The notes under the pieces were generated by a model. The model did no database searches. It saw nothing but the letters and a program-made list of their open reading frames with translations, and had not been told where the DNA came from. Shown here one piece after another: positions 37,596 through 48,758 of a DNA stretch of 64,000 bases. The stretch comes from Mycobacteriales bacterium. Its GTDB lineage: Bacteria > Actinomycetota > Actinomycetes > Mycobacteriales > QHCD01. A program made the translations under genes and the position numbers. Within the stretch, counting starts at the first letter, position 1. Each line of letters begins with the position of its first letter. The DNA lies in contig DASXJE010000046.1 of assembly GCA_036497565.1 (NCBI GenBank), forward strand, positions 15,929-79,928, given 5' to 3'.

Positions 37596-40157
37596 TCAGG
37601 CCAGGGTTACGACGCCCAGATCGGCCGGCGTGGCCAGCAGCTCGTGCCGGGGCACGACCCGCACGGTGTAGCCGAACGCACCGGTGCGCGACAGCGGAAC
37701 CTCGACGCCGTAGTGCAGGTGCCCGTCCGCGTCTCCGGCCGGCGCCATCGACGAGACCGCGACGTCGTGCAGCCGGTTGACGTCGTCGACCCGGCCGTAG
37801 ACCGCCTGGACGTCGACGTCGTCCGGGGAGAGACCCGCGAGGTCGACCTCGGCGCGCAGCGCGAGCTTCGCACCCAGCGCCGGCGTGTCGCCGGCCCCAC
37901 CGGAATCGACATGCCGCACCCGGACACCCGGCCACCGGTCGAGCACCCGGGTCCGCCAGGCAGCCAACGCCTTCGCCCCGGCGTAGTCGTCCGCGGCGAG
38001 CCGGGCGGAGGTCGCCGCCGCCGGCGCATACAGCTCGCGGACGTAGTCGCGCACCATCCGGGTCGCCTGCACCTTCGGCCCGAGCGACTTGAGGGTGTGC
38101 CGCACCATCTCGACCCAGCGGGTGGGCACGCCGGCCAGGTCCCGGTCGTAGAACCGCGGCGTCACCTGGTTCTCGACCATGTCGTAGAGAGCCGCCGCCT
38201 CGAGTGCGTCGCGGCGGTCGCCGTCTTCGATGCCGTCCGCGGTCGGGATCACCCACCCGTTGCCGCCGTCGTACATCTCGTCCCACCAGCCGTCACGGAT
38301 CGACAGGTTCAGCCCGCCGTTGAGCGCGGACTTCATCCCCGAGGTCCCGCACGCCTCGAGCGGCCGCAGCGGGTTGTTGAGCCACACGTCGCACCCGGCG
38401 TAGAGCACCTTCGCCATGTCCATGTCGTAGTTCGGCAGGAAGACGATGCGATGGCGCACCTCCGGGTCGTCGGCGAAGCGCACCATCTGCTGGATCAGCG
38501 ACTTGCCCGGGTCGTCGTTGGGGTGCGACTTGCCGGCGATCACCAACTGCACGGGGCGCTGCGGGTCGAGCAGCAGCCGGCGCAGCCGTTCCGGGTCACG
38601 CAGCATGAGGGTCAGCCGCTTGTACGACGGGACCCGGCGGGCGAAGCCGATGGTGAGTACGTCGGGGTCGAAGACCTGCGCGGTCCAGCCGAGTTCGGCG
38701 GCCGGCATCCCGCGCTGCAGGTAGGACGCACGCACCCGCCGGCGTACCTCCTCGATCAGCCGTTCCCGCATCATCCGGCGGATCGACCAGATCGTGTCGG
38801 CCGGTAGCCGGTCGACGATCTCCCACCCGTCACCCTGGGCGAGGCGGGCCGGGTCGATCTCCCGCTCGACGATGTCGATCATCTCCCGACCCGTCCAGGT
38901 CGGTGCGTGTACGCCGTTGGTCACCGAGCTGATCGGCACCTCGTCGGTGTCGAAGCCCGGCCACAGCCGCCCGAACATGTCCCGGCTGACCCGGCCGTGC
39001 AGCTTGCTGACCCCGTTGGCGCGCTGGGCGAGACGCAGCCCCATGTGGGCCATGTTGAACAGCGCCGGGTCCTCCTCCGCGCCCAGCTGCACGATCCGCT
39101 CGGTCGGTGTCTGCGGCGACTCGTTCGCGCCGCCGAAGTAGGCCCGCACCAGGTCCCGGGTGAACCGGTCGATGCCCGCGGGCACCGGCGTGTGGGTGGT
39201 GAACACCGTGCCGGCCCGCACCGCCTGCGCGGCGTCGTCGAAGGAGAGACCCCTGCCCTCGGTGAGCTCGCGGATGCGCTCCACCCCGAGGAACCCGGCG
39301 TGGCCCTCGTTGGTGTGGAACACCTCCGGCTGCGGGTCCCCGGTGATCTCGCAGTAGGCGCGTACGGCGCGGACGCCGCCTATGCCGAGCAGCATCTCCT
39401 GCTGGAGCCGGTGGTCGGCGTTGCCGCCGTAGAGCTTGTCGGTGACCTGACGCTCCGGGGCGTCGTTCTCCTCGATGTCGGAGTCGAGCAGCAGCAGCGG
39501 CACCCGGCCGACCTGCGCCTTCCACACCTGGGCGGCCACCGACCGCCCGTCGAGCAACCCCACCCGGACCCGCAGCTCCGTGCCGTCCGGGTCGCGCAGC
39601 AACGCCAGCGGGAGGCCGTGCGGGTCGATCGACGGGTACTGCTCGAGCTGCCACCCGTCCGGGGACAGCGACTGGGCGAAGTAGCCGGCCCGGTAGAGCA
39701 GTCCGACCCCGATGATCGGGACGCCGAGGTCGGAAGCGGCCTTGAGGTGGTCGCCGGCGAGGATCCCGAGGCCGCCCGAATACTGCGGCAGCACCTCGGC
39801 GACCCCGAACTCCGGCGAGAAGTAGGCGATCGACCGGGGCGCGTCGGTGAGCGTCTGATACCAGCGGTCGCCGGTGAGGTAGCTCTCGAGGTCGTCGGCG
39901 GCGTCGGAGAGTCGCCGCCGGAACCGCCGGTCCCGGGCGAGCGCCGCCAGCCGCTCGGCCGAGACGGCGCCGAGCAGGCGGACCGGGTCGCCCCCGCAGT
40001 CCCGCCACAGCTCGGGGTCGACCGACTCGAGCAGGTCGAGTGACTCGGTATGCCAGCACCACCGCAGATTCATCACGAGCTCGTCCAGTACGGCGAGCTC
40101 GGGCGGCAGGGTGGGGCGGACGGTGAAACGACGCAGTGCTCTCACGGGCGCCGACAC
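37596..40157 (-). CDS. glgP: Alpha-glucan (glycogen/maltodextrin) phosphorylase, GT35, 853 aa
   Basis: ORF 37596..40157, GTG start. PLP-lysine region EACGTSGMKSALNGGLNLSIRDGWW. Confidence 0.9.
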   Translation of the reverse strand: MSAPVRALRRFTVRPTLPPELAVLDELVMNLRWCWHTESLDLLESVDPELWRDCGGDPVRLLGAVSAERLAALARDRRFRRRLSDAADDLESYLTGDRWYQTLTDAPRSIAYFSPEFGVAEVLPQYSGGLGILAGDHLKAASDLGVPIIGVGLLYRAGYFAQSLSPDGWQLEQYPSIDPHGLPLALLRDPDGTELRVRVGLLDGRSVAAQVWKAQVGRVPLLLLDSDIEENDAPERQVTDKLYGGNADHRLQQEMLLGIGGVRAVRAYCEITGDPQPEVFHTNEGHAGFLGVERIRELTEGRGLSFDDAAQAVRAGTVFTTHTPVPAGIDRFTRDLVRAYFGGANESPQTPTERIVQLGAEEDPALFNMAHMGLRLAQRANGVSKLHGRVSRDMFGRLWPGFDTDEVPISSVTNGVHAPTWTGREMIDIVEREIDPARLAQGDGWEIVDRLPADTIWSIRRMMRERLIEEVRRRVRASYLQRGMPAAELGWTAQVFDPDVLTIGFARRVPSYKRLTLMLRDPERLRRLLLDPQRPVQLVIAGKSHPNDDPGKSLIQQMVRFADDPEVRHRIVFLPNYDMDMAKVLYAGCDVWLNNPLRPLEACGTSGMKSALNGGLNLSIRDGWWDEMYDGGNGWVIPTADGIEDGDRRDALEAAALYDMVENQVTPRFYDRDLAGVPTRWVEMVRHTLKSLGPKVQATRMVRDYVRELYAPAAATSARLAADDYAGAKALAAWRTRVLDRWPGVRVRHVDSGGAGDTPALGAKLALRAEVDLAGLSPDDVDVQAVYGRVDDVNRLHDVAVSSMAPAGDADGHLHYGVEVPLSRTGAFGYTVRVVPRHELLATPADLGVVTLA

Positions 40158-40190: not shown

Positions 40191-41222
40191 TCAGTGATCG
40201 CTCGAACGGCTCCACTCGAGCAGCCGATCGGCCGACCAGGTGTTGACGATCGACTGCTCCGGTACGCCGCACGCGCTCGCGCGTTCGCACCCATAGGGAA
40301 GCCAGTCGAGCTGCCCCGGGGCGTGCGCGTCGCTGTCGATCGAGATCAGGCACTCCGCCTCGACGGCGAGCCGGAGCAGCCGTTTCGGCGGGTCGAGCCG
40401 CTCCGGGCGGGAGTTGACCTCGACCGCCACACCGAACCGCTTGCACGCCGCGAAGACGATCTCCGCGTCGAAGTCCGATTCGGGTCGGTGTCGCTTACCG
40501 GTCACCATCCGCCCGGTGCAGTGGCCGAGTATGTCGGTGTGCCGGTTGGCGACCGCGGCGACCATCCGCGCCGTCATCGCGTCCCGTTCCATACGAAGTC
40601 CACTGTGGACACTCGCCACCACGACGTCGAGCCGATCGAGCAGGTCGCCCTGCTGGTCGAGGCGGCCGTCGTCGAGGATGTCGACCTCGATCCCGGTCAG
40701 CAGCCGGAACGGCGCGAGCCGGTCGTTGACCTCGTCGACCACGTCGAGCTGCGCCCGCAACCGGTCGGCAGTGAGTCCTCGGGCGACCGTGAGCCGCGGC
40801 GAGTGGTCGGTCAGCGCGGCGTATTCGTGGCCGAGCGCCTGCGCGGCCCGGGCCATCTCCTCGATCGGAGATCCCCCGTCGGACCAGTCGCTGTGGGTGT
40901 GCAGGTCGCCGCGAAGACTCCGCCGGAGCGCGTCGCCGGCCTCGGCGACCGACGTACCCGCCGTCGCGTCGAGCCGGCGCAGGTAGACCGGCTCCTCCCC
41001 GGCGAGCGACTCCGCGATGCATCGCGCGGTCACGTCGCCGACCCCGGGCAGCTCGGCGAGCGTGCCGGCCCGCGCCCTGGCCTCGACCTCGGACCGGTCG
41101 AGCCCGTCGAGCGCCGCCGCCGCCCGCCGGAAGGCCCGCACCCGGTAGGTCTGCTCCTGCGCCCGCTCGAGCAGGAAGGCGATCCGCCGGAGGTCGTCGC
41201 GGGGATCGCGGGCGCCGGGCAT
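40191..41222 (-). CDS. PHP-domain phosphoesterase with N-terminal helix-hairpin-helix (PolX C-terminal-like), 343 aa
   Basis: Residue 121 of ORF 40191..41582 starts MPGARDPRDDLRRIAFLLERA. HhH LAELPGVGDVTA, PHP motifs GDLHTHSDWSDG and DSDAH. Confidence 0.82.
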   Translation of the reverse strand: MPGARDPRDDLRRIAFLLERAQEQTYRVRAFRRAAAALDGLDRSEVEARARAGTLAELPGVGDVTARCIAESLAGEEPVYLRRLDATAGTSVAEAGDALRRSLRGDLHTHSDWSDGGSPIEEMARAAQALGHEYAALTDHSPRLTVARGLTADRLRAQLDVVDEVNDRLAPFRLLTGIEVDILDDGRLDQQGDLLDRLDVVVASVHSGLRMERDAMTARMVAAVANRHTDILGHCTGRMVTGKRHRPESDFDAEIVFAACKRFGVAVEVNSRPERLDPPKRLLRLAVEAECLISIDSDAHAPGQLDWLPYGCERASACGVPEQSIVNTWSADRLLEWSRSSDH

Positions 41223-41292
41223 GCCGCGATTGTGCTCGATCCGCCCGGGCCGGCCGGACCCCGGTCGCCGGCCGACGTGGCAGGCTCGGCCC

Positions 41293-42465
41293 GTGCCTGC
41301 TCCCCTTGTCGCGACACTGCGCCGGGTCGAGCGCGCGTCCGGGGCCCTGGCCACCCAGAGCGTGGCGCGGATGGACGAGCAGCTGGCGTGGTTCCGGGCG
41401 ATGCCGCCCGCCCAGCGGTCCTGGATCACGCTGGTCGCCCAGGCCGGGGTGGCGTCCTTCGTCGAGTGGCTGCGCGACCCCGACGTCTCGCCGTCCCCGA
41501 TCGGTGACGTGTTCAACACCGCGCCCCCGGATCTGGCCCGCCGGGTCTCGTTGCAGCAGACCGTGGAACTGGTACGGATCACGGTCGAGGTGGTCGAGTC
41601 GCGGGTGGCGAACCTGGCCGCCCCCGGTGAGGAGGCGGCGCTGCGCGAGGCCGTCCTCCGCTACAGCAGGGAGATCGCCTTCGCCGCGGCGCAGGTCTAC
41701 GCCGGTGTCGCGGAGACCCGCGGAGCCTGGGATGCCCGGCTCGAGGCCCTGGTCGTCGACGCGCTGCTGCGGGGCGAGCCGGACGAGTCGCTGCCCGGCC
41801 GGGCCGCCGCGCTCGGCTGGGCGTCGGTCACCGCGGTCGCCGTCGCGGTCGGCGAGGCACCGGCGGCCGATCCCGAGTCGGTGCTGGACGCCATCCAGCG
41901 AGCCGCCCGACCGGGCGGCGGACCGGTCCTGGCCGGAATCCACGCGGGCCGGCTCCTCGTCGCCGTCGGAGGCAGTGACGACGCGCGGCCGACGATCACC
42001 GCCCTCCTGCCGCAGTTCGGCCCCGGGCCGGTCGTGGTCGGCCCTACCGTCCGCGACCTGGGCGTAGCCGGCCGGTCGGCGACCGCCGCCTTGTCCGGGG
42101 TCCGGGCCGCCTGCGCCTGGCCGGCCGCGCCCCGCCCGGTCCTGGCCACCGATCTGCTACCCGAACGGGCGCTGTGCGGCGACCGGACGGCGCAGCAGGA
42201 GTTGGTGGACGACGTCTACGCTCCCCTCGCCGCCGCCGGCGGACCGCTGCTCGAAACCGCCACAATCTACCTCGACCGCGGCGGTGCCCTCGAGGCCACG
42301 GCGCGGGCGCTCTTTGTCCATCCCAACACTGTCCGCTACCGCCTCCGCCGGATCGCCGAGGTCTGCGGCCATCCGCCGGCCGAGCCGAGACACGCGTTCG
42401 TCCTCCAGATCGCGCTTGCGCTCGGCCGCCTCGCTGAGCAGGAAGCCCGGTCAGGCCCGGAGTAG
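41293..42465 (+). CDS. PucR/CdaR-family transcriptional regulator (FasR-like by position), about 390 aa
   Basis: Residue 25 (GTG) of ORF 41221..42465. C-terminal HTH LFVHPNTVRYRLRRI. Sits immediately upstream of fabD, like Streptomyces fasR. ATG 41221 would abut the divergent PHP gene start. Confidence 0.78.
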   Translation: MPAPLVATLRRVERASGALATQSVARMDEQLAWFRAMPPAQRSWITLVAQAGVASFVEWLRDPDVSPSPIGDVFNTAPPDLARRVSLQQTVELVRITVEVVESRVANLAAPGEEAALREAVLRYSREIAFAAAQVYAGVAETRGAWDARLEALVVDALLRGEPDESLPGRAAALGWASVTAVAVAVGEAPAADPESVLDAIQRAARPGGGPVLAGIHAGRLLVAVGGSDDARPTITALLPQFGPGPVVVGPTVRDLGVAGRSATAALSGVRAACAWPAAPRPVLATDLLPERALCGDRTAQQELVDDVYAPLAAAGGPLLETATIYLDRGGALEATARALFVHPNTVRYRLRRIAEVCGHPPAEPRHAFVLQIALALGRLAEQEARSGPE

Positions 42466-42553: not shown

Positions 42554-43750
42554 GTGATCGCACTACTTGCCCCGGGCCAGGGGTCGCAGGCACCCGGCAT
42601 GCTCACGCCATGGCTGGAGGTGCCCGGAGCGCCCGCCCGGGTGCAATGGCTCTCCGAGGTCACCGGGCTCGACCTGGCCCGGCTCGGCACGAGTGCCTCC
42701 GCCGAGGAGATCCGCGACACCGCAGTCACCCAGCCCCTGATCGTCGCGCTCGGCCTGATCGCGGCCGCCGAACTCTCCCTCGACGACGTCGCGGTCACCG
42801 CCGGGCACAGCGTCGGCGAGCTGACCGCGGCCGCGCTGGCCGGGGTGCTGACGCCGGAGAGCGCCGCGGCGCTCGCGGCGCTGCGCGGCCGCGAGATGGC
42901 GGCGGCCTGCGGGCTCGCCGACACCGGCATGTCGGCGGTGCTGGGCGGCGACCCGGCCGAGGTGATCGCCCGGATCGAGGAGTGCGGCCTGGTCGCGGCC
43001 AACCGCAACGGCGCCGGTCAGGTGGTCGCCGCCGGCACGCTGGAGGGTCTGGCCGCGCTCGCGGAGACCCCGCCGGCCCGCGCCCGCGTCGTCCCGCTGC
43101 CGGTCGCCGGCGCCTTCCACACCGACTTCATGGCCCCGGCCGAGGCGGCACTGGCCGACGTCGCCGACGGCATCCCGGTCGCCGGGCCCGAGCGCATGCT
43201 GCTGTCCAACGCCGACGGCACCGCGGTGTCCAGCGGTCGCGAGATGATGAAGCGACTCGTCCGCCAGGTCCGGTCTCCGGTCCGATGGGACCTGTGCCAG
43301 GCGACCCTGCGCGACCTCGATGTCACCGCCGCGATCGAACTGCCGCCCGCGGGGACCCTCACCGGGCTCGCCAAGCGCGAACTCCCCGGCGTCGAGGTCG
43401 TCGCACTCAAGACTCCGGACGACCTGCCCGCGGCCCGCCGGCTCATCCTGCAGGCCGCGCCCAGCGGTCAGGCGGTGCACACCCCGGACTGGCGGGTGGT
43501 GGTGTCGCCGGCCGGCGGCACGTTCCACCCGACCGCTCTCGAGGAGGGCACGGCGCTGCCCGCCGGCTCACCGCTCGGCGTCATCCGCACCCGGCGCGAC
43601 GAACAGCACGTCAGCGCCAGCTACGACGGCGTACTCGTCGAATGGCTGGCCCAGGACGCCGATCTGGTCGATGCCGGCGAGCCGCTCGCGCTGCTCTACC
43701 CCGATCCCACCCTCGACGTCTCGACCACAGGAAAGGACGGCGCCCGGTGA
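42554..43750 (+). CDS. fabD: Malonyl-CoA:ACP transacylase FabD fused to a C-terminal lysine-less biotinyl/lipoyl-carrier-like domain, 398 aa
   Basis: Residue 91 (GTG) of ORF 42284..43750, with a GGAGG SD 9 nt upstream. FabD motifs LLAPGQGSQ, GHSVGE and AFHT in residues 1-300. Residues ~313-383 (VVSPAGGTFH...GSPLGVIRTRRDEQHVSASYDGVLVEWLAQDADLVDAGEPLALL) align by eye to the BCCP biotinyl domain. Confidence 0.88.
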   Translation: MIALLAPGQGSQAPGMLTPWLEVPGAPARVQWLSEVTGLDLARLGTSASAEEIRDTAVTQPLIVALGLIAAAELSLDDVAVTAGHSVGELTAAALAGVLTPESAAALAALRGREMAAACGLADTGMSAVLGGDPAEVIARIEECGLVAANRNGAGQVVAAGTLEGLAALAETPPARARVVPLPVAGAFHTDFMAPAEAALADVADGIPVAGPERMLLSNADGTAVSSGREMMKRLVRQVRSPVRWDLCQATLRDLDVTAAIELPPAGTLTGLAKRELPGVEVVALKTPDDLPAARRLILQAAPSGQAVHTPDWRVVVSPAGGTFHPTALEEGTALPAGSPLGVIRTRRDEQHVSASYDGVLVEWLAQDADLVDAGEPLALLYPDPTLDVSTTGKDGAR

Positions 43751-44700
43751 ATTCAGGCGACGGAGCACCGGGAGCGCGGATCCTCGCCATCGGCGACTAC
43801 CGGCCCACCCAGGTGGTGACCAACGACGACCTCGCGAAGCGGCTCGACACCAACGACGCGTGGATTCGCAGCCGGGTCGGCGTCGGCTCCCGGCACATCG
43901 CCGCCGACGGCGAGACCGTCGTCGACATGGGGACGGCCGCCGCGGGCAAGGCGCTGGCCGCCAGCGGGATCGCGCCGGAGAAGATCGACCTGGTGGTCAC
44001 CGCGACCTGCACCATGCCGACCGCGCTGCCCTCGGCCGCGCCGAGCATCGCCGCCCGGCTGGGGATCCCGACCCCGGGCGCCTACGACCTCAACGGTGCG
44101 TGCGCCGGCTTCTGCTACGGCCTGTCCATGGCCAGCGACGCGATCCGGGCCGGGTCCGCACGACACGTGCTGCTCATCGGTGCGGAGAAGCTGTCGGCCT
44201 GGCTGGACTGGACCGACCGCTCGACCTGCATCATCTTCGGCGACGGTGCCGGAGCCGCGGTGATCGGCCCGGCCGACGAACCCGGCATCGGCCCGGTGGT
44301 CTGGGGCAGCGACGGCGAGCAGGCCGAGGCGATCAGCACCAACGAGGAGCGCTACATCCAGATGGACGGCCGCGCGGTCTTCCGCTGGGCCACCACCAAG
44401 ATGGGCGCTGTCGCCCTCGAGGCCTGCGCCCGGGCCGGCATCTCCCCCGCCGACCTGGCGGTCGTCGTCCCGCACCAGGCCAACCTGCGCATCGTGGAAG
44501 CCATCGTCAAGCAACTCGGCACCCCCGACGCCATCGTGGCCCGGGACATCGTCGACACCGGCAACACCTCGTCGGCCTCCGTACCGCTGGCCCTGGCTCG
44601 CATGCGCGAACGCGGCGAGATCCGCACCGGCGACCACGCCCTGCTCATCGCCTTCGGCGCAGGGCTCACCTACGCCGGGCAGGTCATCACCTGCCCGTGA
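43747..44700 (+). CDS. fabH: 3-oxoacyl-ACP synthase III FabH, 317 aa
   Basis: GTG at 43747 in the frame of ORF 42469..44700 (residue 427). Catalytic contexts NGACAGF, PHQANLRI and GNTSSAS. GTGA overlap with the fabD stop. Confidence 0.92.
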   Translation: MNSGDGAPGARILAIGDYRPTQVVTNDDLAKRLDTNDAWIRSRVGVGSRHIAADGETVVDMGTAAAGKALAASGIAPEKIDLVVTATCTMPTALPSAAPSIAARLGIPTPGAYDLNGACAGFCYGLSMASDAIRAGSARHVLLIGAEKLSAWLDWTDRSTCIIFGDGAGAAVIGPADEPGIGPVVWGSDGEQAEAISTNEERYIQMDGRAVFRWATTKMGAVALEACARAGISPADLAVVVPHQANLRIVEAIVKQLGTPDAIVARDIVDTGNTSSASVPLALARMRERGEIRTGDHALLIAFGAGLTYAGQVITCP

Positions 44701-44755
44701 CACACCGGGCCGGGCACACCGCCCGTCCCGTCCACCGATGAAAGGACAGCACATC

Positions 44756-44998
44756 GTGACGACCGAGGAGATCCGCTCCGGCCTCGCCGACATCCTGGAA
44801 GAGGTCGCCGGGGTCCAGCCGGCCGACGTGGCCCCCGAGAAGTCCTTCGTCGACGACCTCGACGTGGACTCGCTCTCGATGGTCGAGGTCGCTCTCGCCG
44901 CCGAGGAGAAGTTCGGCGTCAAGATCCCCGACGACGAGCTGTCCAACCTCAAGACGGTCGGTGACGCGATCGCCTACATCGAGAAGAACCAGTCCTGA
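44756..44998 (+). CDS. acpP: Acyl carrier protein, 80 aa from GTG 44756 (ORF track start 44738)
   Basis: ORF 44738..44998. Phosphopantetheine site LDVDSLSMVE. AAAGGA SD inside the first codons of the longer ORF favours GTG 44756. Confidence 0.92.
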   Translation: MTTEEIRSGLADILEEVAGVQPADVAPEKSFVDDLDVDSLSMVEVALAAEEKFGVKIPDDELSNLKTVGDAIAYIEKNQS

Positions 44999-45083: not shown

Positions 45084-46325
45084 ATGACCGCAGAGCACGA
45101 CATCTACGTGACCGGAATGGGTGCGACGACGCCTCTCGGGGGGGACGTGTCGTCGACCTGGTCGGCCATGCTCGAAGGCCGCTCCGGGGTGACCGCGCTC
45201 GAGGACGACTGGGCAAAACAGCTGACGGCGCGCCTGGTGGCCCGGGTCGCGGTGGAACCCACCGAGACCCTGTCCCGGGTGGAGGCCCGCCGGCTCGACC
45301 GGTGCCAGCAACTGGCGCTGGTCGCCGCCCGGGAGGCCTGGGCCGACAGCGGTCTGGCCGGCTCAGCCGGCGACTCCAACGTCGACCCGGAGCGCCTGGC
45401 CGTCGTACTCGGCACCGGGATCGGCGGCGCGCTGACGCTGCTCGGCCAGGACGACGTGCTCGAGGCCAGCGGTCCGCGGCGGGTGTCGCCGTTGACCGTG
45501 CCGATGCTCATGCCCAACTCGCCGGCCGCGGCGGTCGGACTCGATGTCGGCGCCCGGGCCGGGGTACACGCCCCGGTCAGCGCCTGCGCCTCCGGTGCGG
45601 AGGCCCTGGCCTGGGCGGTCGACGTGATCCGCGCCGGGCGGGCCGACGTCGTGGTCAGCGGCGGCACCGAGGCCTGCATCCATCCGCTGCCGATGGCCGG
45701 CTTCGGGCAGATGCGCGCGCTGTCCACCCGCAACGACGACCCGGAGGCCGCGTCCCGGCCCTTCGACAAGGGGCGCGACGGCTTCGTCCTCGGCGAAGGG
45801 GCCGGCGTCCTGGTCCTCGAACGCGCCGACCACGCGCGGGCCCGGGGTGCCCAGGTCTACGGCGTACTCGCCGGCGGCGGCATCACCTCCGACGCGTACC
45901 ACATCACCGCACCCGATCCGGTCGGGTCCGGTGCGGCGCGGGCCATCGGGCTGGCGCTCGAACGCGGCGGCCTGACCCGCGCCGACATCGGGCACGTCAA
46001 CGCCCACGCGACGTCGACGGCCGTGGGCGACCTCGCCGAGGCCCAGGCGATCCGGGCGGCGCTCGGCAACGACCCGGTGGTCACCTCGACCAAGTCCATG
46101 ACGGGTCACCTGCTCGGTGCCGCCGGCGCGGTCGAGGCGATCGCCACCGTGCTCGCCATCCGCGACGGGATCATCCCGGTGACCCGCAACCTCGACGATC
46201 CCGACGACGAGATCGACCTGGATCTGGTCCGGATGACCGCCCGCAAGGTCTCACTCGACGCGGCAGTCAGCGACTCGTTCGGATTCGGCGGGCACAACGT
46301 CGCGCTCGCGTTCTGCCGGGCGTAG
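45084..46325 (+). CDS. fabF: 3-oxoacyl-ACP synthase II (FabF/KasA-type), 413 aa
   Basis: Residue 42 of ORF 44961..46325 starts MTAEHDIYVTGMGATTPLG. Cys-His-His contexts SACASGA, NAHATST and GHLLGAAG. Confidence 0.92.
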   Translation: MTAEHDIYVTGMGATTPLGGDVSSTWSAMLEGRSGVTALEDDWAKQLTARLVARVAVEPTETLSRVEARRLDRCQQLALVAAREAWADSGLAGSAGDSNVDPERLAVVLGTGIGGALTLLGQDDVLEASGPRRVSPLTVPMLMPNSPAAAVGLDVGARAGVHAPVSACASGAEALAWAVDVIRAGRADVVVSGGTEACIHPLPMAGFGQMRALSTRNDDPEAASRPFDKGRDGFVLGEGAGVLVLERADHARARGAQVYGVLAGGGITSDAYHITAPDPVGSGAARAIGLALERGGLTRADIGHVNAHATSTAVGDLAEAQAIRAALGNDPVVTSTKSMTGHLLGAAGAVEAIATVLAIRDGIIPVTRNLDDPDDEIDLDLVRMTARKVSLDAAVSDSFGFGGHNVALAFCRA

Positions 46326-46335
46326 CCGCCATGTC

Positions 46336-47805
46336 ATGTCGACGAGCCGATCGATCGCCCACCCTGAGGGGGAGCAACCAGTGACCACACTCGCGTCCGC
46401 CCCGGCCGCCGCCGGGCCCGCCCCGGACCTGCGCGATCCCGAGGTGCGGCTCGCCGCGCTCCTCGACGACGACTCGGTCGACCTGCTGTCCGAACACGAC
46501 AGCTGCGGAGTGCTCACCGCCCGTGGAACGGTCGACGGCGGCCCGGTGATCGCCTACGCGACCGACGGCACCGTCATGGGCGGCGCGATGGGCTCGGAGG
46601 GCTGCCGGCGGGTCGTCGACGCAATCGACACGGCCGTCCGCGAGCGGGTGCCGGTCATCGGGCTGTGGCACTGCGGCGGCGCGCGGCTGGCCGAGGGCGT
46701 GGAGGCGCTCGACGCCGTCGGCCAGGTGTTCGCCGCGATGGTGCGGGCCTCCGGCCGGGTACCCCAGATCTCGGTCGTGCTCGGCCCGGCGGCCGGTGGC
46801 GCGGCCTACGGCCCGGCCCTCACCGACATCGTCATCATGGGTCCGGCCGGACGGGTCTTCGTGACCGGTCCTGAGGTCGTCCGCAGTGTCACCGGCGAGA
46901 TGGTCGACATGGAGCGGCTCGGCGGACCCGACACCCACGGCCGACGCAGCGGCGTGGTCCACGTGGTCACCACCTCCGACGAGGAGGCGATGGAGCGGGC
47001 CCGGGCGCTGACCCAACTGCTCTCCGTACCGGGCCGGCTGACGCCCTCGGTCATCACCGAGGACGTCGATGTCTCGGCGCTGCTCCCGGACGCTCCCCAG
47101 CGGGCCTACGACGTCCACCCGGTGGTCGCCGCCATCCTCGACCCGGACGCAAGCCTGGTGGAGTTGCACCCGCGCTGGGCACCCAACGTCGTGACGGCGC
47201 TGGGTCGGCTGGCCGGGCGGACGGTCGGCGTCATCGCCAACAACCCGCTGCGCCTCGGCGGATGCCTCGACTCGGCGTCGGCGGAGAAGGCCGCGCGGTT
47301 CGTGCGGATGTGCGACGCGTTCGGCGTACCCCTGGTGGTTCTCGTCGACGTTCCCGGCTACCTGCCCGGGGTGGGACAGGAGTGGGACGGCGTCGTACGG
47401 CGCGGCGCCAAACTGCTGCACGCCTTCTCCGAGGCCGTGGTGCCCCGCGTCACGCTGATCACGCGCAAGGCCTACGGCGGCGCCTACATCGCGATGAACT
47501 CACGTGCGCTCGGCGCGGACGCCGTACTCGCGTGGCCGACCGCCGAGGTCGCCGTGATGGGCGCATCCGCCGCCGTCAACATCCTGCACCGCAAGAAGCT
47601 CGCCGCCGTACCGAACGACGAACGGCAGGCGCTGCATGCGCGGTTGACCGCCGAGCACGAGAAGATCGCCGGTGGCGTCAACCGCGCACTGGAGATCGGG
47701 GTCGTGGACGAGATCATCCAGCCCGACACCACCCGACGCCGACTGGCCGAGGCGCTGGCCGCCGCGCCCGCGGGTCGCGGCGCGCACGGCAACATCCCGC
47801 TGTAG
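46336..47805 (+). CDS. Acyl-CoA carboxylase carboxyltransferase beta subunit (AccD6-like by position), up to 489 aa
   Basis: ORF 46336..47805. Carboxyltransferase fold with two GG-loop regions (LWHCGGARLAEG, KAYGGAYIAM). Directly follows the KAS gene, as accD6 does in mycobacteria. Start uncertain. Confidence 0.87.
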   Translation: MSTSRSIAHPEGEQPVTTLASAPAAAGPAPDLRDPEVRLAALLDDDSVDLLSEHDSCGVLTARGTVDGGPVIAYATDGTVMGGAMGSEGCRRVVDAIDTAVRERVPVIGLWHCGGARLAEGVEALDAVGQVFAAMVRASGRVPQISVVLGPAAGGAAYGPALTDIVIMGPAGRVFVTGPEVVRSVTGEMVDMERLGGPDTHGRRSGVVHVVTTSDEEAMERARALTQLLSVPGRLTPSVITEDVDVSALLPDAPQRAYDVHPVVAAILDPDASLVELHPRWAPNVVTALGRLAGRTVGVIANNPLRLGGCLDSASAEKAARFVRMCDAFGVPLVVLVDVPGYLPGVGQEWDGVVRRGAKLLHAFSEAVVPRVTLITRKAYGGAYIAMNSRALGADAVLAWPTAEVAVMGASAAVNILHRKKLAAVPNDERQALHARLTAEHEKIAGGVNRALEIGVVDEIIQPDTTRRRLAEALAAAPAGRGAHGNIPL

Positions 47806-47822: not shown

Positions 47823-48314
47823 TCAGCCGACCTGGTGCAGCCACCGGACCGGTGCGCCGTCGCCGGCCTGCCGGTAGGGCTCGAGCTCGGCGTCCCACGA
47901 CGCCCCGAGCATGGTGTCGATCGCATGCGCGAAGTCGTCGGCGGTCACGCAACCGGCCCGGGCGGCGCGCAGTTGCTGCTCGCCGATCACCAGGTCGCCG
48001 TTGGCACTCGTCGCCGCCCGGTGGGTTCCCCGGCCGGGGACGTGCACGATGCGCTCGCCGTCGCAGCCCGGGCTCGCGTCCTCGGTGACCTCGAACCGCA
48101 ACATGGGCCAGTCCCGCAGCGCCGCGGCGAGGCGGCCACCGGTGCCGGCCCGACCGCTCCATCCGCACTCTGCGCGCAGTGCGCCGGGCGCGGCGGGCTG
48201 CCCGGTCCACGACAGCGTGACCCGCATGTCGAGGACAGCCGAAATAGCCCACTCCACATGCGGGCAAACAGCGGGCGCGCACGAGTGGACATAGACGACG
48301 CCACGTGTGGCCAC
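47823..48314 (-). CDS. DUF3145 family protein, 163 aa
   Basis: Residue 126 (GTG) of ORF 47823..48689 starts VATRGVVYVHSCAPAVCPHVEWAISAVL. GGAGG SD 5 nt upstream. Confidence 0.8.
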   Translation of the reverse strand: MATRGVVYVHSCAPAVCPHVEWAISAVLDMRVTLSWTGQPAAPGALRAECGWSGRAGTGGRLAAALRDWPMLRFEVTEDASPGCDGERIVHVPGRGTHRAATSANGDLVIGEQQLRAARAGCVTADDFAHAIDTMLGASWDAELEPYRQAGDGAPVRWLHQVG

Positions 48315-48566
48315 GGTGACCTCCGGTTGGACGAGGGACGCCTTCCCCGACGACCTCGACCATGGGACACACGGTGACGCTGTGACGTTGCCGTGATCAT
48401 TGTGCCTGGTGAGACCCCTGATGCGCCAGCCATGCGCAGATCCACCCGGTCGGCTCCCCGATTCGGCGAAACGACGGCGCTGCCCGCCACGGTGCGTGAC
48501 GATGGGCACTGCCGGTCGACCCGGCCGGCCTAGCCGCGTCCCCATTGAGGTCCGGGGAGGACAACC

Positions 48567-48758
48567 ATGCGTAAGGTCGCCGACTGCCGTGACATGCCGA
48601 GCGAGTCCGGCTGCACTCTCACCATCAGCGGAGCAGAGGACGAGGTCGTCCGCGCCGCCGCCGAACATGCGGTCTCCGTGCACGGCCACACCGACTCACC
48701 CGAGTTCCGGAACGAGATCCGGGGCTCGCTGAAGGACGAGGCGCCCGCCGGCGTCTGA
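48567..48758 (+). CDS. DUF1059 family small protein, 63 aa
   Basis: ORF 48567..48758, MRKVADCRDMPSESGCTLTISGAEDEVVRAAAEHAVSVHGH. GGGGAGG SD upstream. Confidence 0.75.
   Translation: MRKVADCRDMPSESGCTLTISGAEDEVVRAAAEHAVSVHGHTDSPEFRNEIRGSLKDEAPAGV

Follow-up and report, generated by a model that had tools for sequence, protein, structure and literature searches.

A predicted carrier-dead biotinyl-type domain at the C terminus of the malonyl-CoA:ACP transacylase FabD in Actinomycetota

In a 64,000-nucleotide stretch of a Mycobacteriales genome (contig DASXJE010000046.1, positions 15,929 to 79,928; here called the window), the fabD gene for malonyl-CoA:acyl carrier protein (ACP) transacylase runs on well beyond the end of its catalytic region. 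We hold with high confidence that the encoded protein consists of a FabD enzyme, a flexible linker, and a biotinyl-type domain that is dead as a carrier. At least 549 species genomes matched this C-terminal tail, and its predicted hairpin tip carries a conserved arginine at the position of the biotinyl lysine. The tail most likely serves as a docking module that binds another protein. Docking to the acyl-CoA carboxylase AccA-AccD6 is the mechanism that we tentatively favor.

Architecture and predicted fold of the protein

The fabD open reading frame (ORF) occupies positions 42554 to 43750 of the forward strand and encodes 398 amino acids. The most likely start is the GTG at 42554, with a GGGAGG box lying 7 nt upstream; translation from it gives VIALLAPGQGSQ... 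at the N terminus. The TGA stop at 43748-43750 overlaps the GTG start of fabH in a GTGA at 43747-43750. The GC contents of the three codon positions were 0.79/0.53/0.88 in the tail and 0.80/0.55/0.92 in the catalytic part, which is the same pattern. For the tail, GC at third codon positions (GC3) was 0.88 in the fabD frame versus 0.78 and 0.53 in the other two frames.

Residues 1 to about 300 (42554-43453) are an ordinary, complete malonyl-CoA:ACP transacylase in which every FabD family feature tested was found. Pfam Acyl_transf_1 spanned residues 7-275 (E = 7e-19). The N-terminal oxyanion motif GQGSQ (residues 8-12), the nucleophile elbow GHSVGE (84-89), and AGAFH (185-189), of which GAFH (186-189) holds the catalytic histidine, were invariant in 39 homologues. 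In the full-length AlphaFold model, the mean predicted local distance difference test (pLDDT) score was 91.2, with values above 90 in both domains. Foldseek matched the model to the FabDs of Streptomyces coelicolor (1nm2, 305 aa; 57% identity, TMt 0.96) and Mycobacterium tuberculosis (2qc3, 302 aa; 59% identity, TMt 0.95). Solved FabDs superposed on residues 1-300 over about 300 to 303 columns with template-modelling (TM) scores of 0.95 to 0.97, and both enzymes end where the linker begins. The original prediction, that a complete FabD is followed by an extension of the same ORF up to the GTGA junction, was thus borne out by both Pfam and the superposition on tail-less FabDs. The TIGR00128 score was 160 bits and lay below the 261-bit equivalog cut-off; scores under this cut-off are common for high-GC actinobacterial FabDs.

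The fused protein and canonical FabD (1nm2, 2qc3) share the catalytic motifs and, within the fab operon, a position after a PucR-type regulator. Unlike the fused form, the FabDs that have been solved or studied are 302 to 316 aa long and have no C-terminal beta domain. The catalytic domain was 57 to 59% identical to the tail-less enzymes of S. coelicolor and M. tuberculosis and 53 to 57% identical to tail-bearing Nocardioides enzymes. This similarity to both groups argues that the tail-bearing proteins represent the housekeeping orthologue of FabD instead of a distinct paralogue, and the tail was probably gained early and then lost in some lineages. Public names for the fused proteins are FabD or "acyltransferase domain-containing protein," and NCBIfam holds no dedicated model for the fused form.

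The interdomain linker comprises residues 301-312 (43454-43489; codon 301 begins at 43454). Its opening residues vary and are predicted as disordered (pLDDT below 50 for 305-310). A conserved HTPDW motif comes next, with H309, T310, P311, D312, and W313 each 86 to 94% conserved among homologues in a metagenomic alignment. Low pLDDT (<50) was also obtained for residues 388-398. These lie in the C-terminal extension (residues 384-398 and the stop codon, 43703-43750), which is unconserved and predicted to be disordered, its columns being mostly gaps in the homologues. The predicted TM score of the whole protein was 0.75, equal to 300/398, which would be expected if only the FabD domain were confidently placed. 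In these models, the tail has the look of a module that folds on its own and is held by a flexible, partly disordered tether of about 12 residues. Flexible tethering is the geometry of biotin carboxyl carrier protein (BCCP) domains in carboxylases.

The tail domain itself, residues 313-383 (43490-43702), is by sequence and predicted fold a member of the biotinyl/lipoyl hybrid-motif superfamily. Pfam Biotin_lipoyl (PF00364) aligned with the window tail over positions 4-72 of 73 (E = 2-4e-4, 20.6-21.4 bits), which is just under the gathering score of 22.1 bits, so that the window tail alone is borderline. The same family was matched by all 23 of 23 diverse homologous tails, the best at 1.6e-8. 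A phmmer search of the Protein Data Bank (PDB) gave ungapped alignments of the tail to the transcarboxylase 1.3S biotinyl domain (1dcz, E = 0.005) and to the BCCP of Pyrococcus horikoshii, and a profile of the tail family reached 2e-10 to 1e-7 against lipoyl and biotinyl domains of known structure. When this profile was run over 1.84 billion representative proteins, canonical AMKM biotinyl domains and DKA/DKV lipoyl domains were retrieved at 1e-13 to 1e-21. In the reverse direction, a hidden Markov model (HMM) of five canonical biotinyl domains, searched against the six-frame translation of the window, matched the fabD ORF only (E = 4e-7). No canonical BCCP was found by this search in the 64-kb window, and the FabD tail is the only biotinyl-type domain there.

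The same homologous tails also matched HlyD_3, Biotin_lipoyl_2, QRPTase_N, and Peptidase_M23. HlyD_3 reached 7e-4 on the window tail, and its matches spanned only the last 30 to 35 residues; a precomputed assignment to PF25997 (BSH_YhbJ) was present on many homologues.

A fold search with the full-length model yielded FabDs only, and the tail was therefore modelled alone. The tail-only AlphaFold model (pLDDT 92.8) was all-beta and contiguous, with seven to eight strands and no helices. All of its top 29 Foldseek matches in the PDB were BCCP or biotinyl domains. The best was 2d5d, the P. horikoshii BCCP, with a TMt of 0.88 and a root mean square deviation (rmsd) of 1.3 Å; the Escherichia coli BCCP (1bdo) was matched with a TMt of 0.80, and further matches were the BCCP domains of LCC, MCC, PCC, and PC. 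The resemblance of residues 313-383 to a BCCP biotinyl domain, first noticed by eye, was thereby recovered by Pfam, phmmer, the PDB profile search, and the fold search, and both the statistical similarity and, in the predicted model, the barrel-sandwich fold on which the idea depended were found. Sequence profiles do not separate a biotinyl from a lipoyl ancestry, and the predicted structure ranks biotinyl domains first.

Compared with the biotinyl domains 2d5d, 1dcz, and 1bdo, the FabD tail has the same predicted fold and length, aligns without gaps, and superposes with a TMt of 0.80 to 0.88 and an rmsd of 1.3 to 1.5 Å. The glycine, proline, and hydrophobic framework is common to both. The differences lie in the hairpin, which reads E-A-M-K-M in biotinyl domains versus R-T-R-R-D-E in the tail, with Arg at the lysine position, and in the "thumb" of E. 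coli-type BCCP, which the tail lacks. Moreover, the tail has the family-specific residues Y357, E363-W364, and D370, and it is joined to FabD rather than to a carboxylase.

The hybrid domains of membrane-fusion proteins (HlyD, CusB, YhbJ) are likewise lysine-free, put the fold to a noncarrier use, and gave weak profile matches to the tail. In these proteins, the hybrid domain is interrupted by an alpha-hairpin, precedes beta-barrel and membrane-proximal domains, and lies within a periplasmic multidomain protein. The FabD tail is predicted to be contiguous and helix-free, forms the C terminus of a cytoplasmic enzyme, and is structurally nearest to BCCP, and its assignment as a membrane-fusion-protein hybrid domain was ruled out on these grounds.

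As for other architectures, the strongest profile matches among the 1.84 billion representatives were FabD C termini or fragments. Next came lipoyl and biotinyl domains of the ordinary kind, along with membrane-fusion proteins and with TIR or SIR2 proteins that carry biotinyl-like repeats. Among 24 longer or multi-stretch matches inspected by sequence, the EWL..DGD signature was not found outside FabD C-terminal pieces.

A side observation concerns the TIR and SIR2 proteins, which lie outside the window. These have an N-terminal TIR (P0232, P0285, P0156) or SIR2-like (P0229, P0255) domain and two to five tandem biotinyl-like domains, and several of the repeats are without the MKM lysine. The architecture looks defense related and is not one that we know to have been described.

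Hairpin tip, constraint, and distribution of the fusion

The beta-hairpin tip of the tail is R345-T-R-R-D-E350 (43586-43603). The HMMER alignment to 1dcz places A-M-K-M opposite T346-R347-R348-D349, with R348 (codon 43595-43597) at the position of the biotinyl lysine, in agreement with the earlier by-eye alignment of RTRRD with EAMKM. Residues 301-393 of the window protein were also verified to contain no lysine; K394, in the unconserved last residues, is the only one in the tail. Neither the Met residues that flank the lysine in biotinyl motifs nor the lipoyl Asp-Lys-Ala is present. A carrier is recognized by a modifiable lysine within (A/S)MKM or DKA at the hairpin tip, and the tail of the window FabD has none. 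We read the tail as not being a carrier, with Arg348 apparently replacing the cofactor-bearing lysine.

Across 76 species loci, position 348 was Arg in 70, Lys in 4, Ala in 1, and Gln in 1, and it was followed by Asp or Glu in 64 of the 76. The picture was more mixed in 121 metagenomic homologues. Lys stood at position 348 in 16 of them, with Arg and Gln as the other common residues, and the preceding position was Arg or Lys about equally often (Lys in 57/121). Tails without any lysine made up 43 of the 121, and "lysine-less" is not a universal description of the tail family as sampled here. An interchange of Arg, Lys, and Gln at position 348 is incompatible with an obligatory attachment site, and the dominance of Arg across several actinobacterial orders indicates that the hairpin tip has been re-purposed rather than randomly decayed. 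The family-specific invariant residues are Y357, E363-W364, D370, and an HTPDW-R motif leading into strand 1.

Conservation of the tail was compared with that of the catalytic domain. Among the 121 homologues, pairwise identity averaged 70% in the catalytic domain, 52% in the linker, and 63% in the beta domain, and the pairwise identities of the catalytic and beta domains correlated (r = 0.73). In the species loci, tail identity followed catalytic identity in each divergence bin (catalytic/tail, 92/90%, 86/82%, 77/65%, 63/62%, and 55/49%). Nei-Gojobori ratios of nonsynonymous to synonymous substitution rates (dN/dS) were 0.53 and 0.56 for the two parts and serve as a relative comparison only: the absolute values of about 0.5 in both domains are inflated, as a GC3 near 0.9 compresses dS, and tracking by identity bins was used in their place. 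The tail is under about the same purifying selection as the catalytic domain. In this light, the term "degenerate," which the original prediction had applied to the carrier domain, is misleading, given the conserved tip Arg and a constraint close to that of the enzyme itself.

The fusion is genuine and old, and the tail is not a separate gene. The 120 best full-length homologues were all 372 to 487 aa long. A degenerate-pattern scan of one genome per species gave at least 549 confirmed matching species genomes; the best 80 of these belonged to Geodermatophilaceae (Blastococcus, Modestobacter, Geodermatophilus, and Klenkia), Nocardioidaceae (Nocardioides and Marmoricola), Frankiaceae, Acidothermaceae, and Streptosporangiales. 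Propionibacteriaceae and Propionicimonas were present among the protein-cluster members. In 76 of 82 fetched loci, the tail lay in the same ORF as GQGSQ and GHSxGE, with an estimated length of 385 to 410 aa. Four of the six exceptions were cut by contig ends (L048, L051, L073, and L078), and two had no in-frame FabD motifs (L001 and L045). L001 carries frameshifts in both fabD and fabH. A seventh odd locus, L067, has a 119-aa ORF with the tail only and a catalytic match in another frame, and it lacks an intact fabH. The frame split between catalytic domain and tail in L045 and L067 is probably an assembly error. In addition, a 99%-identical fused protein was found in an independent metagenome.

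Databases also hold stand-alone entries of 74 to 84 aa that match the tail and are named "biotin/lipoyl-binding protein" or "biotin carboxyl carrier protein" (P0006-P0014, P0016, and P0017). Two of these, P0006 and P0017, were traced to contigs, and both were artefacts. P0017 (L002, 2178-2402) is an internal start called within an intact 419-aa fused ORF, and P0006 (L001, 5001-5255) is the C terminus of a fabD split by a frameshifted long-read assembly. The spread of fused versus split genes, which had been proposed as a check, came out as fusion in 76 of the 82 loci fetched, with both traced split entries explained.

Some irregular entries were seen in the protein collections. P0171 (485 aa) has a low-complexity insertion of about 100 residues, rich in Pro, Ala, and Ser, just before GHSVGE, and P0083 (487 aa) is about 90 residues longer than a typical tail-bearing FabD; either may be real or may reflect a problem of ORF calling or assembly. 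A cluster at 90% identity (representative, P0189) mixes 402-aa FabD-tail proteins with 331-aa FabH proteins from the same Propionibacteriaceae contigs, which is probably a clustering quirk arising from overlapping or adjacent gene calls.

Operon context and candidate roles of the tail

The operon begins with a PucR-type regulator resembling FasR/MabR (41221-42465, forward strand; Pfam HTH_30, 1.9e-21; GGDEF_2, 8e-12), whose true start may lie further downstream. On the same strand, fabD is followed by fabH for ketoacyl-ACP synthase III (43747-44700; ACP_syn_III and ACP_syn_III_C, each about 4e-31), acpP/acpM for ACP (44738-44998; PP-binding, 8e-15), a fabF/kasA-type ketoacyl-ACP synthase gene (45084-46325; ketoacyl-synt, 1e-53; Ketoacyl-synt_C, 1e-32) starting at the ATG before MTAEHDIYVTGMG, and accD6 for the carboxyltransferase beta subunit of acyl-CoA carboxylase (46336-47805; Carboxyl_trans, 5e-130). 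The last product had earlier been called AccD6-like. It aligned end to end with M. tuberculosis AccD6 (4fb8, 4l6w) at a phmmer E value of 1e-199, with PccB next at 1e-125, and can be named an AccD6 orthologue. The order regulator-fabD-fabH-acpP-fabF-accD6 was found in the window and in all those related loci whose sequence extended far enough, and fabH lay directly downstream of the tail in all related loci. The GTGA overlap of fabD and fabH was confined to the window and close relatives, other tail-bearing species having a gap of a few to more than 100 nt. Since this spacing varies, translational coupling of fabD and fabH is not a conserved feature.

The partner of a docking module may be the carboxylase encoded, in part, by the same operon. 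In the mechanism that we tentatively favor, as a possibility rather than an expectation, the flexibly tethered tail would hold FabD at the AccA-AccD6 carboxylase, and malonyl-CoA would be transferred to ACP at its site of production. The arginine-tipped hairpin might tune carboxylase activity to FabD occupancy. Docking to the carboxylase is favored because the ancestral partners of the fold are the biotin carboxylase (BC) and carboxyltransferase (CT) components, because the fusion joins consecutive pathway steps (Rosetta-stone logic), and because accD6 is in the operon in all tail-bearing lineages seen. It is also favored because plant BADCs, which are BCCP homologues without the biotinylation motif, act on acetyl-CoA carboxylase (ACCase) through protein-protein contacts (PMC12706156).

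The comparison with BADCs has limits. Like the FabD tail, BADCs represent a nonbiotinylated BCCP homologue retained at the entry to fatty acid synthesis (PMC12706156). However, they stand free, occur in plants and algae, contain long disordered stretches, and bind BC, whereas the FabD tail is bacterial, amounts to the mobile domain alone, and is joined covalently to the enzyme that acts next in the pathway. The tail is not a member of the BADC family, being neither free-standing nor provided with an N-terminal region that binds BC, and homology was shown only at the level of the superfamily.

Several observations weigh against docking to the carboxylase. The tail profile matched the BCCP domain of mycobacterial AccA3 only weakly (1.5e-4), so the tail did not arise as a recent duplicate of the cognate carrier. 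The synteny with accD6 is inseparable from common descent. M. tuberculosis has accD6 in its fabD operon together with a tail-less FabD (the 302-aa length is confirmed by 2qc3), and the tail-less FabDs of M. tuberculosis and S. coelicolor imply that the tail is dispensable for type II fatty acid synthase (FAS-II) and carboxylase function generally. In a mirror-tree comparison, the tail was set against AccD6, FabH, ACP, FabF, the regulator, and the catalytic domain; every partial correlation was small (range, -0.08 to 0.33; AccD6, 0.15; ACP, 0.26; FabH, -0.08), AccD6 did not stand above ACP, FabF, or the regulator, and no partner-specific signal emerged. The contact of biotinyl domains with the BC and CT active sites is transient and made mostly through biotin itself. 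To bind BC, the BCCPs of E. coli and plants use their N-terminal part, and the FabD tail lacks this part. A biotin-free tail may therefore have little affinity for BC or CT. Finally, Arg348 as a pseudo-substrate, which the original prediction had entertained, was rejected for geometric reasons, since the side chain of Arg falls far short of biocytin in length and cannot reach the BC or CT active site.

A more ambitious form of carboxylase docking is doubtful, though worth stating. The tail would then be an arginine-tipped swinging arm that couples FabD to AccA-AccD6, forming a carboxylase-transacylase metabolon in a large part of Actinomycetota. The conserved Arg would engage the BCCP docking site, and malonyl-CoA synthesis and ACP loading would be co-localized and mutually regulated. 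Such an arm would be an independently evolved bacterial counterpart of plant BADC regulation, built into the next pathway enzyme.

The best surviving alternative, itself somewhat unlikely, places the tail entirely within FAS-II, unrelated to the carboxylase. It would be a docking or oligomerization module that binds FabH, ACP, or a ketosynthase, or dimerizes FabD, and so assembles an initiation complex. The barrel-sandwich hybrid is a general protein-binding fold, as the additional matches of the tails to HlyD_3, Biotin_lipoyl_2, QRPTase_N, and Peptidase_M23 illustrate, and the basic hairpin-tip residues could make contact with ACP, which is acidic. Two-hybrid studies have reported interactions of mycobacterial FabD with condensing enzymes of FAS-II, and fabH stands immediately downstream in all loci. 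However, the overlap of fabH with the fabD stop seen in the window is not conserved, the mirror-tree value is negative for FabH and reaches only 0.26 for ACP, and the nearest structural relatives of the tail are biotinyl carrier domains and not other classes of barrel-sandwich domains.

It is unlikely that the tail acts as a BADC-like negative regulator, competing with the BCCP domain of AccA for BC and CT sites and throttling the production of malonyl-CoA in step with how much FabD is present or with its state. Plant BADCs were first characterized as negative regulators of ACCase (PMC12706156). A BCCP fold without the lysine and the presence of accD6 within the operon fit this idea as well, but BADCs are free-standing and have BCCP-like N-terminal or disordered regions that bind BC, whereas the tail is a mobile domain fused to the product-consuming enzyme. 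In actinobacteria, AccA carries BC and BCCP in one covalent chain, which makes it impossible to displace BCCP from a subcomplex, and a stoichiometric inhibitor co-expressed from the same essential operon is hard to rationalize.

Less probable still is a tail that serves as receiver for a regulator recognizing biotinyl domains, such as PII or biotin protein ligase (BirA), and that couples FabD to biotin status or to nitrogen or energy status. In Arabidopsis, both BCCP and the nonbiotinylated BADCs are bound by PII (PMC12706156), and the best structural match of the tail, the P. horikoshii BCCP domain, was crystallized with its biotin ligase (2ejf). However, no gene for such a regulator was linked to the locus in the window or in 80 related loci, no precedent is known for regulating FabD in this way, and the idea is purely analogical.

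A cryptic carrier, modified on the lysine of some homologues or on another residue, is very improbable. The minority of homologues with Lys at the aligned position, and the larger number with Lys just before it, would suit such a carrier, but the window protein offers no lysine in residues 301-393, the conserved Arg and its interchange with Lys and Gln do not suit a required attachment site, and the flanking residues of both modification motifs are missing. An artefact in the form of a frameshift, of read-through, or of an erroneous joining of fabD to a small gene of its own, as the stand-alone entries and the frame splits in L045 and L067 might suggest, is effectively refuted by the two miscalled entries, the 76 in-frame loci, the independent metagenomic protein, and a tail GC3 that matches that of the catalytic part.

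Flanking genes and implications

Downstream of the operon, a DUF3145 gene (47823-48689, reverse strand) is convergent to accD6. Most of the 80 related loci, which span several actinobacterial orders, had this gene as a conserved downstream neighbor. The other flanking genes encode a 63-aa DUF1059 protein (48567-48758, forward strand), a PHP-domain/helix-hairpin-helix (PolX-like) protein (40191-41582, reverse strand), and an alpha-glucan phosphorylase with a DUF3417 N terminus (37596-40157, reverse strand). These three look ordinary and have no apparent link to the FabD tail.

FabD and acyl-CoA carboxylase catalyze the two committed entry steps of bacterial fatty acid synthesis and are drug targets in actinobacteria. 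In the open-access full-text literature, we found no description of a fusion of FabD with a biotinyl-type domain, and in the literature the passage of malonyl-CoA between carboxylase and FabD was not found linked to physical coupling in bacteria. For annotation, split-off tail entries named "biotin/lipoyl-binding protein" can mislead inventories of biotin enzymes and inflate the counts of biotin-dependent proteins.

If docking to the carboxylase is true, the tail would be the first bacterial nonbiotinylated BCCP-like module acting on fatty acid synthesis at its initiation, in independent parallel to the plant BADCs. If its partner is another protein, the tail would still be an uncharacterized accessory domain of an essential enzyme. 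In either case, a strongly conserved, carrier-dead biotinyl domain on FabD provides a testable handle on the handover of malonyl-CoA, and the tail-bearing bacteria include the cultivable genera Nocardioides, Blastococcus, Modestobacter, and Geodermatophilus.

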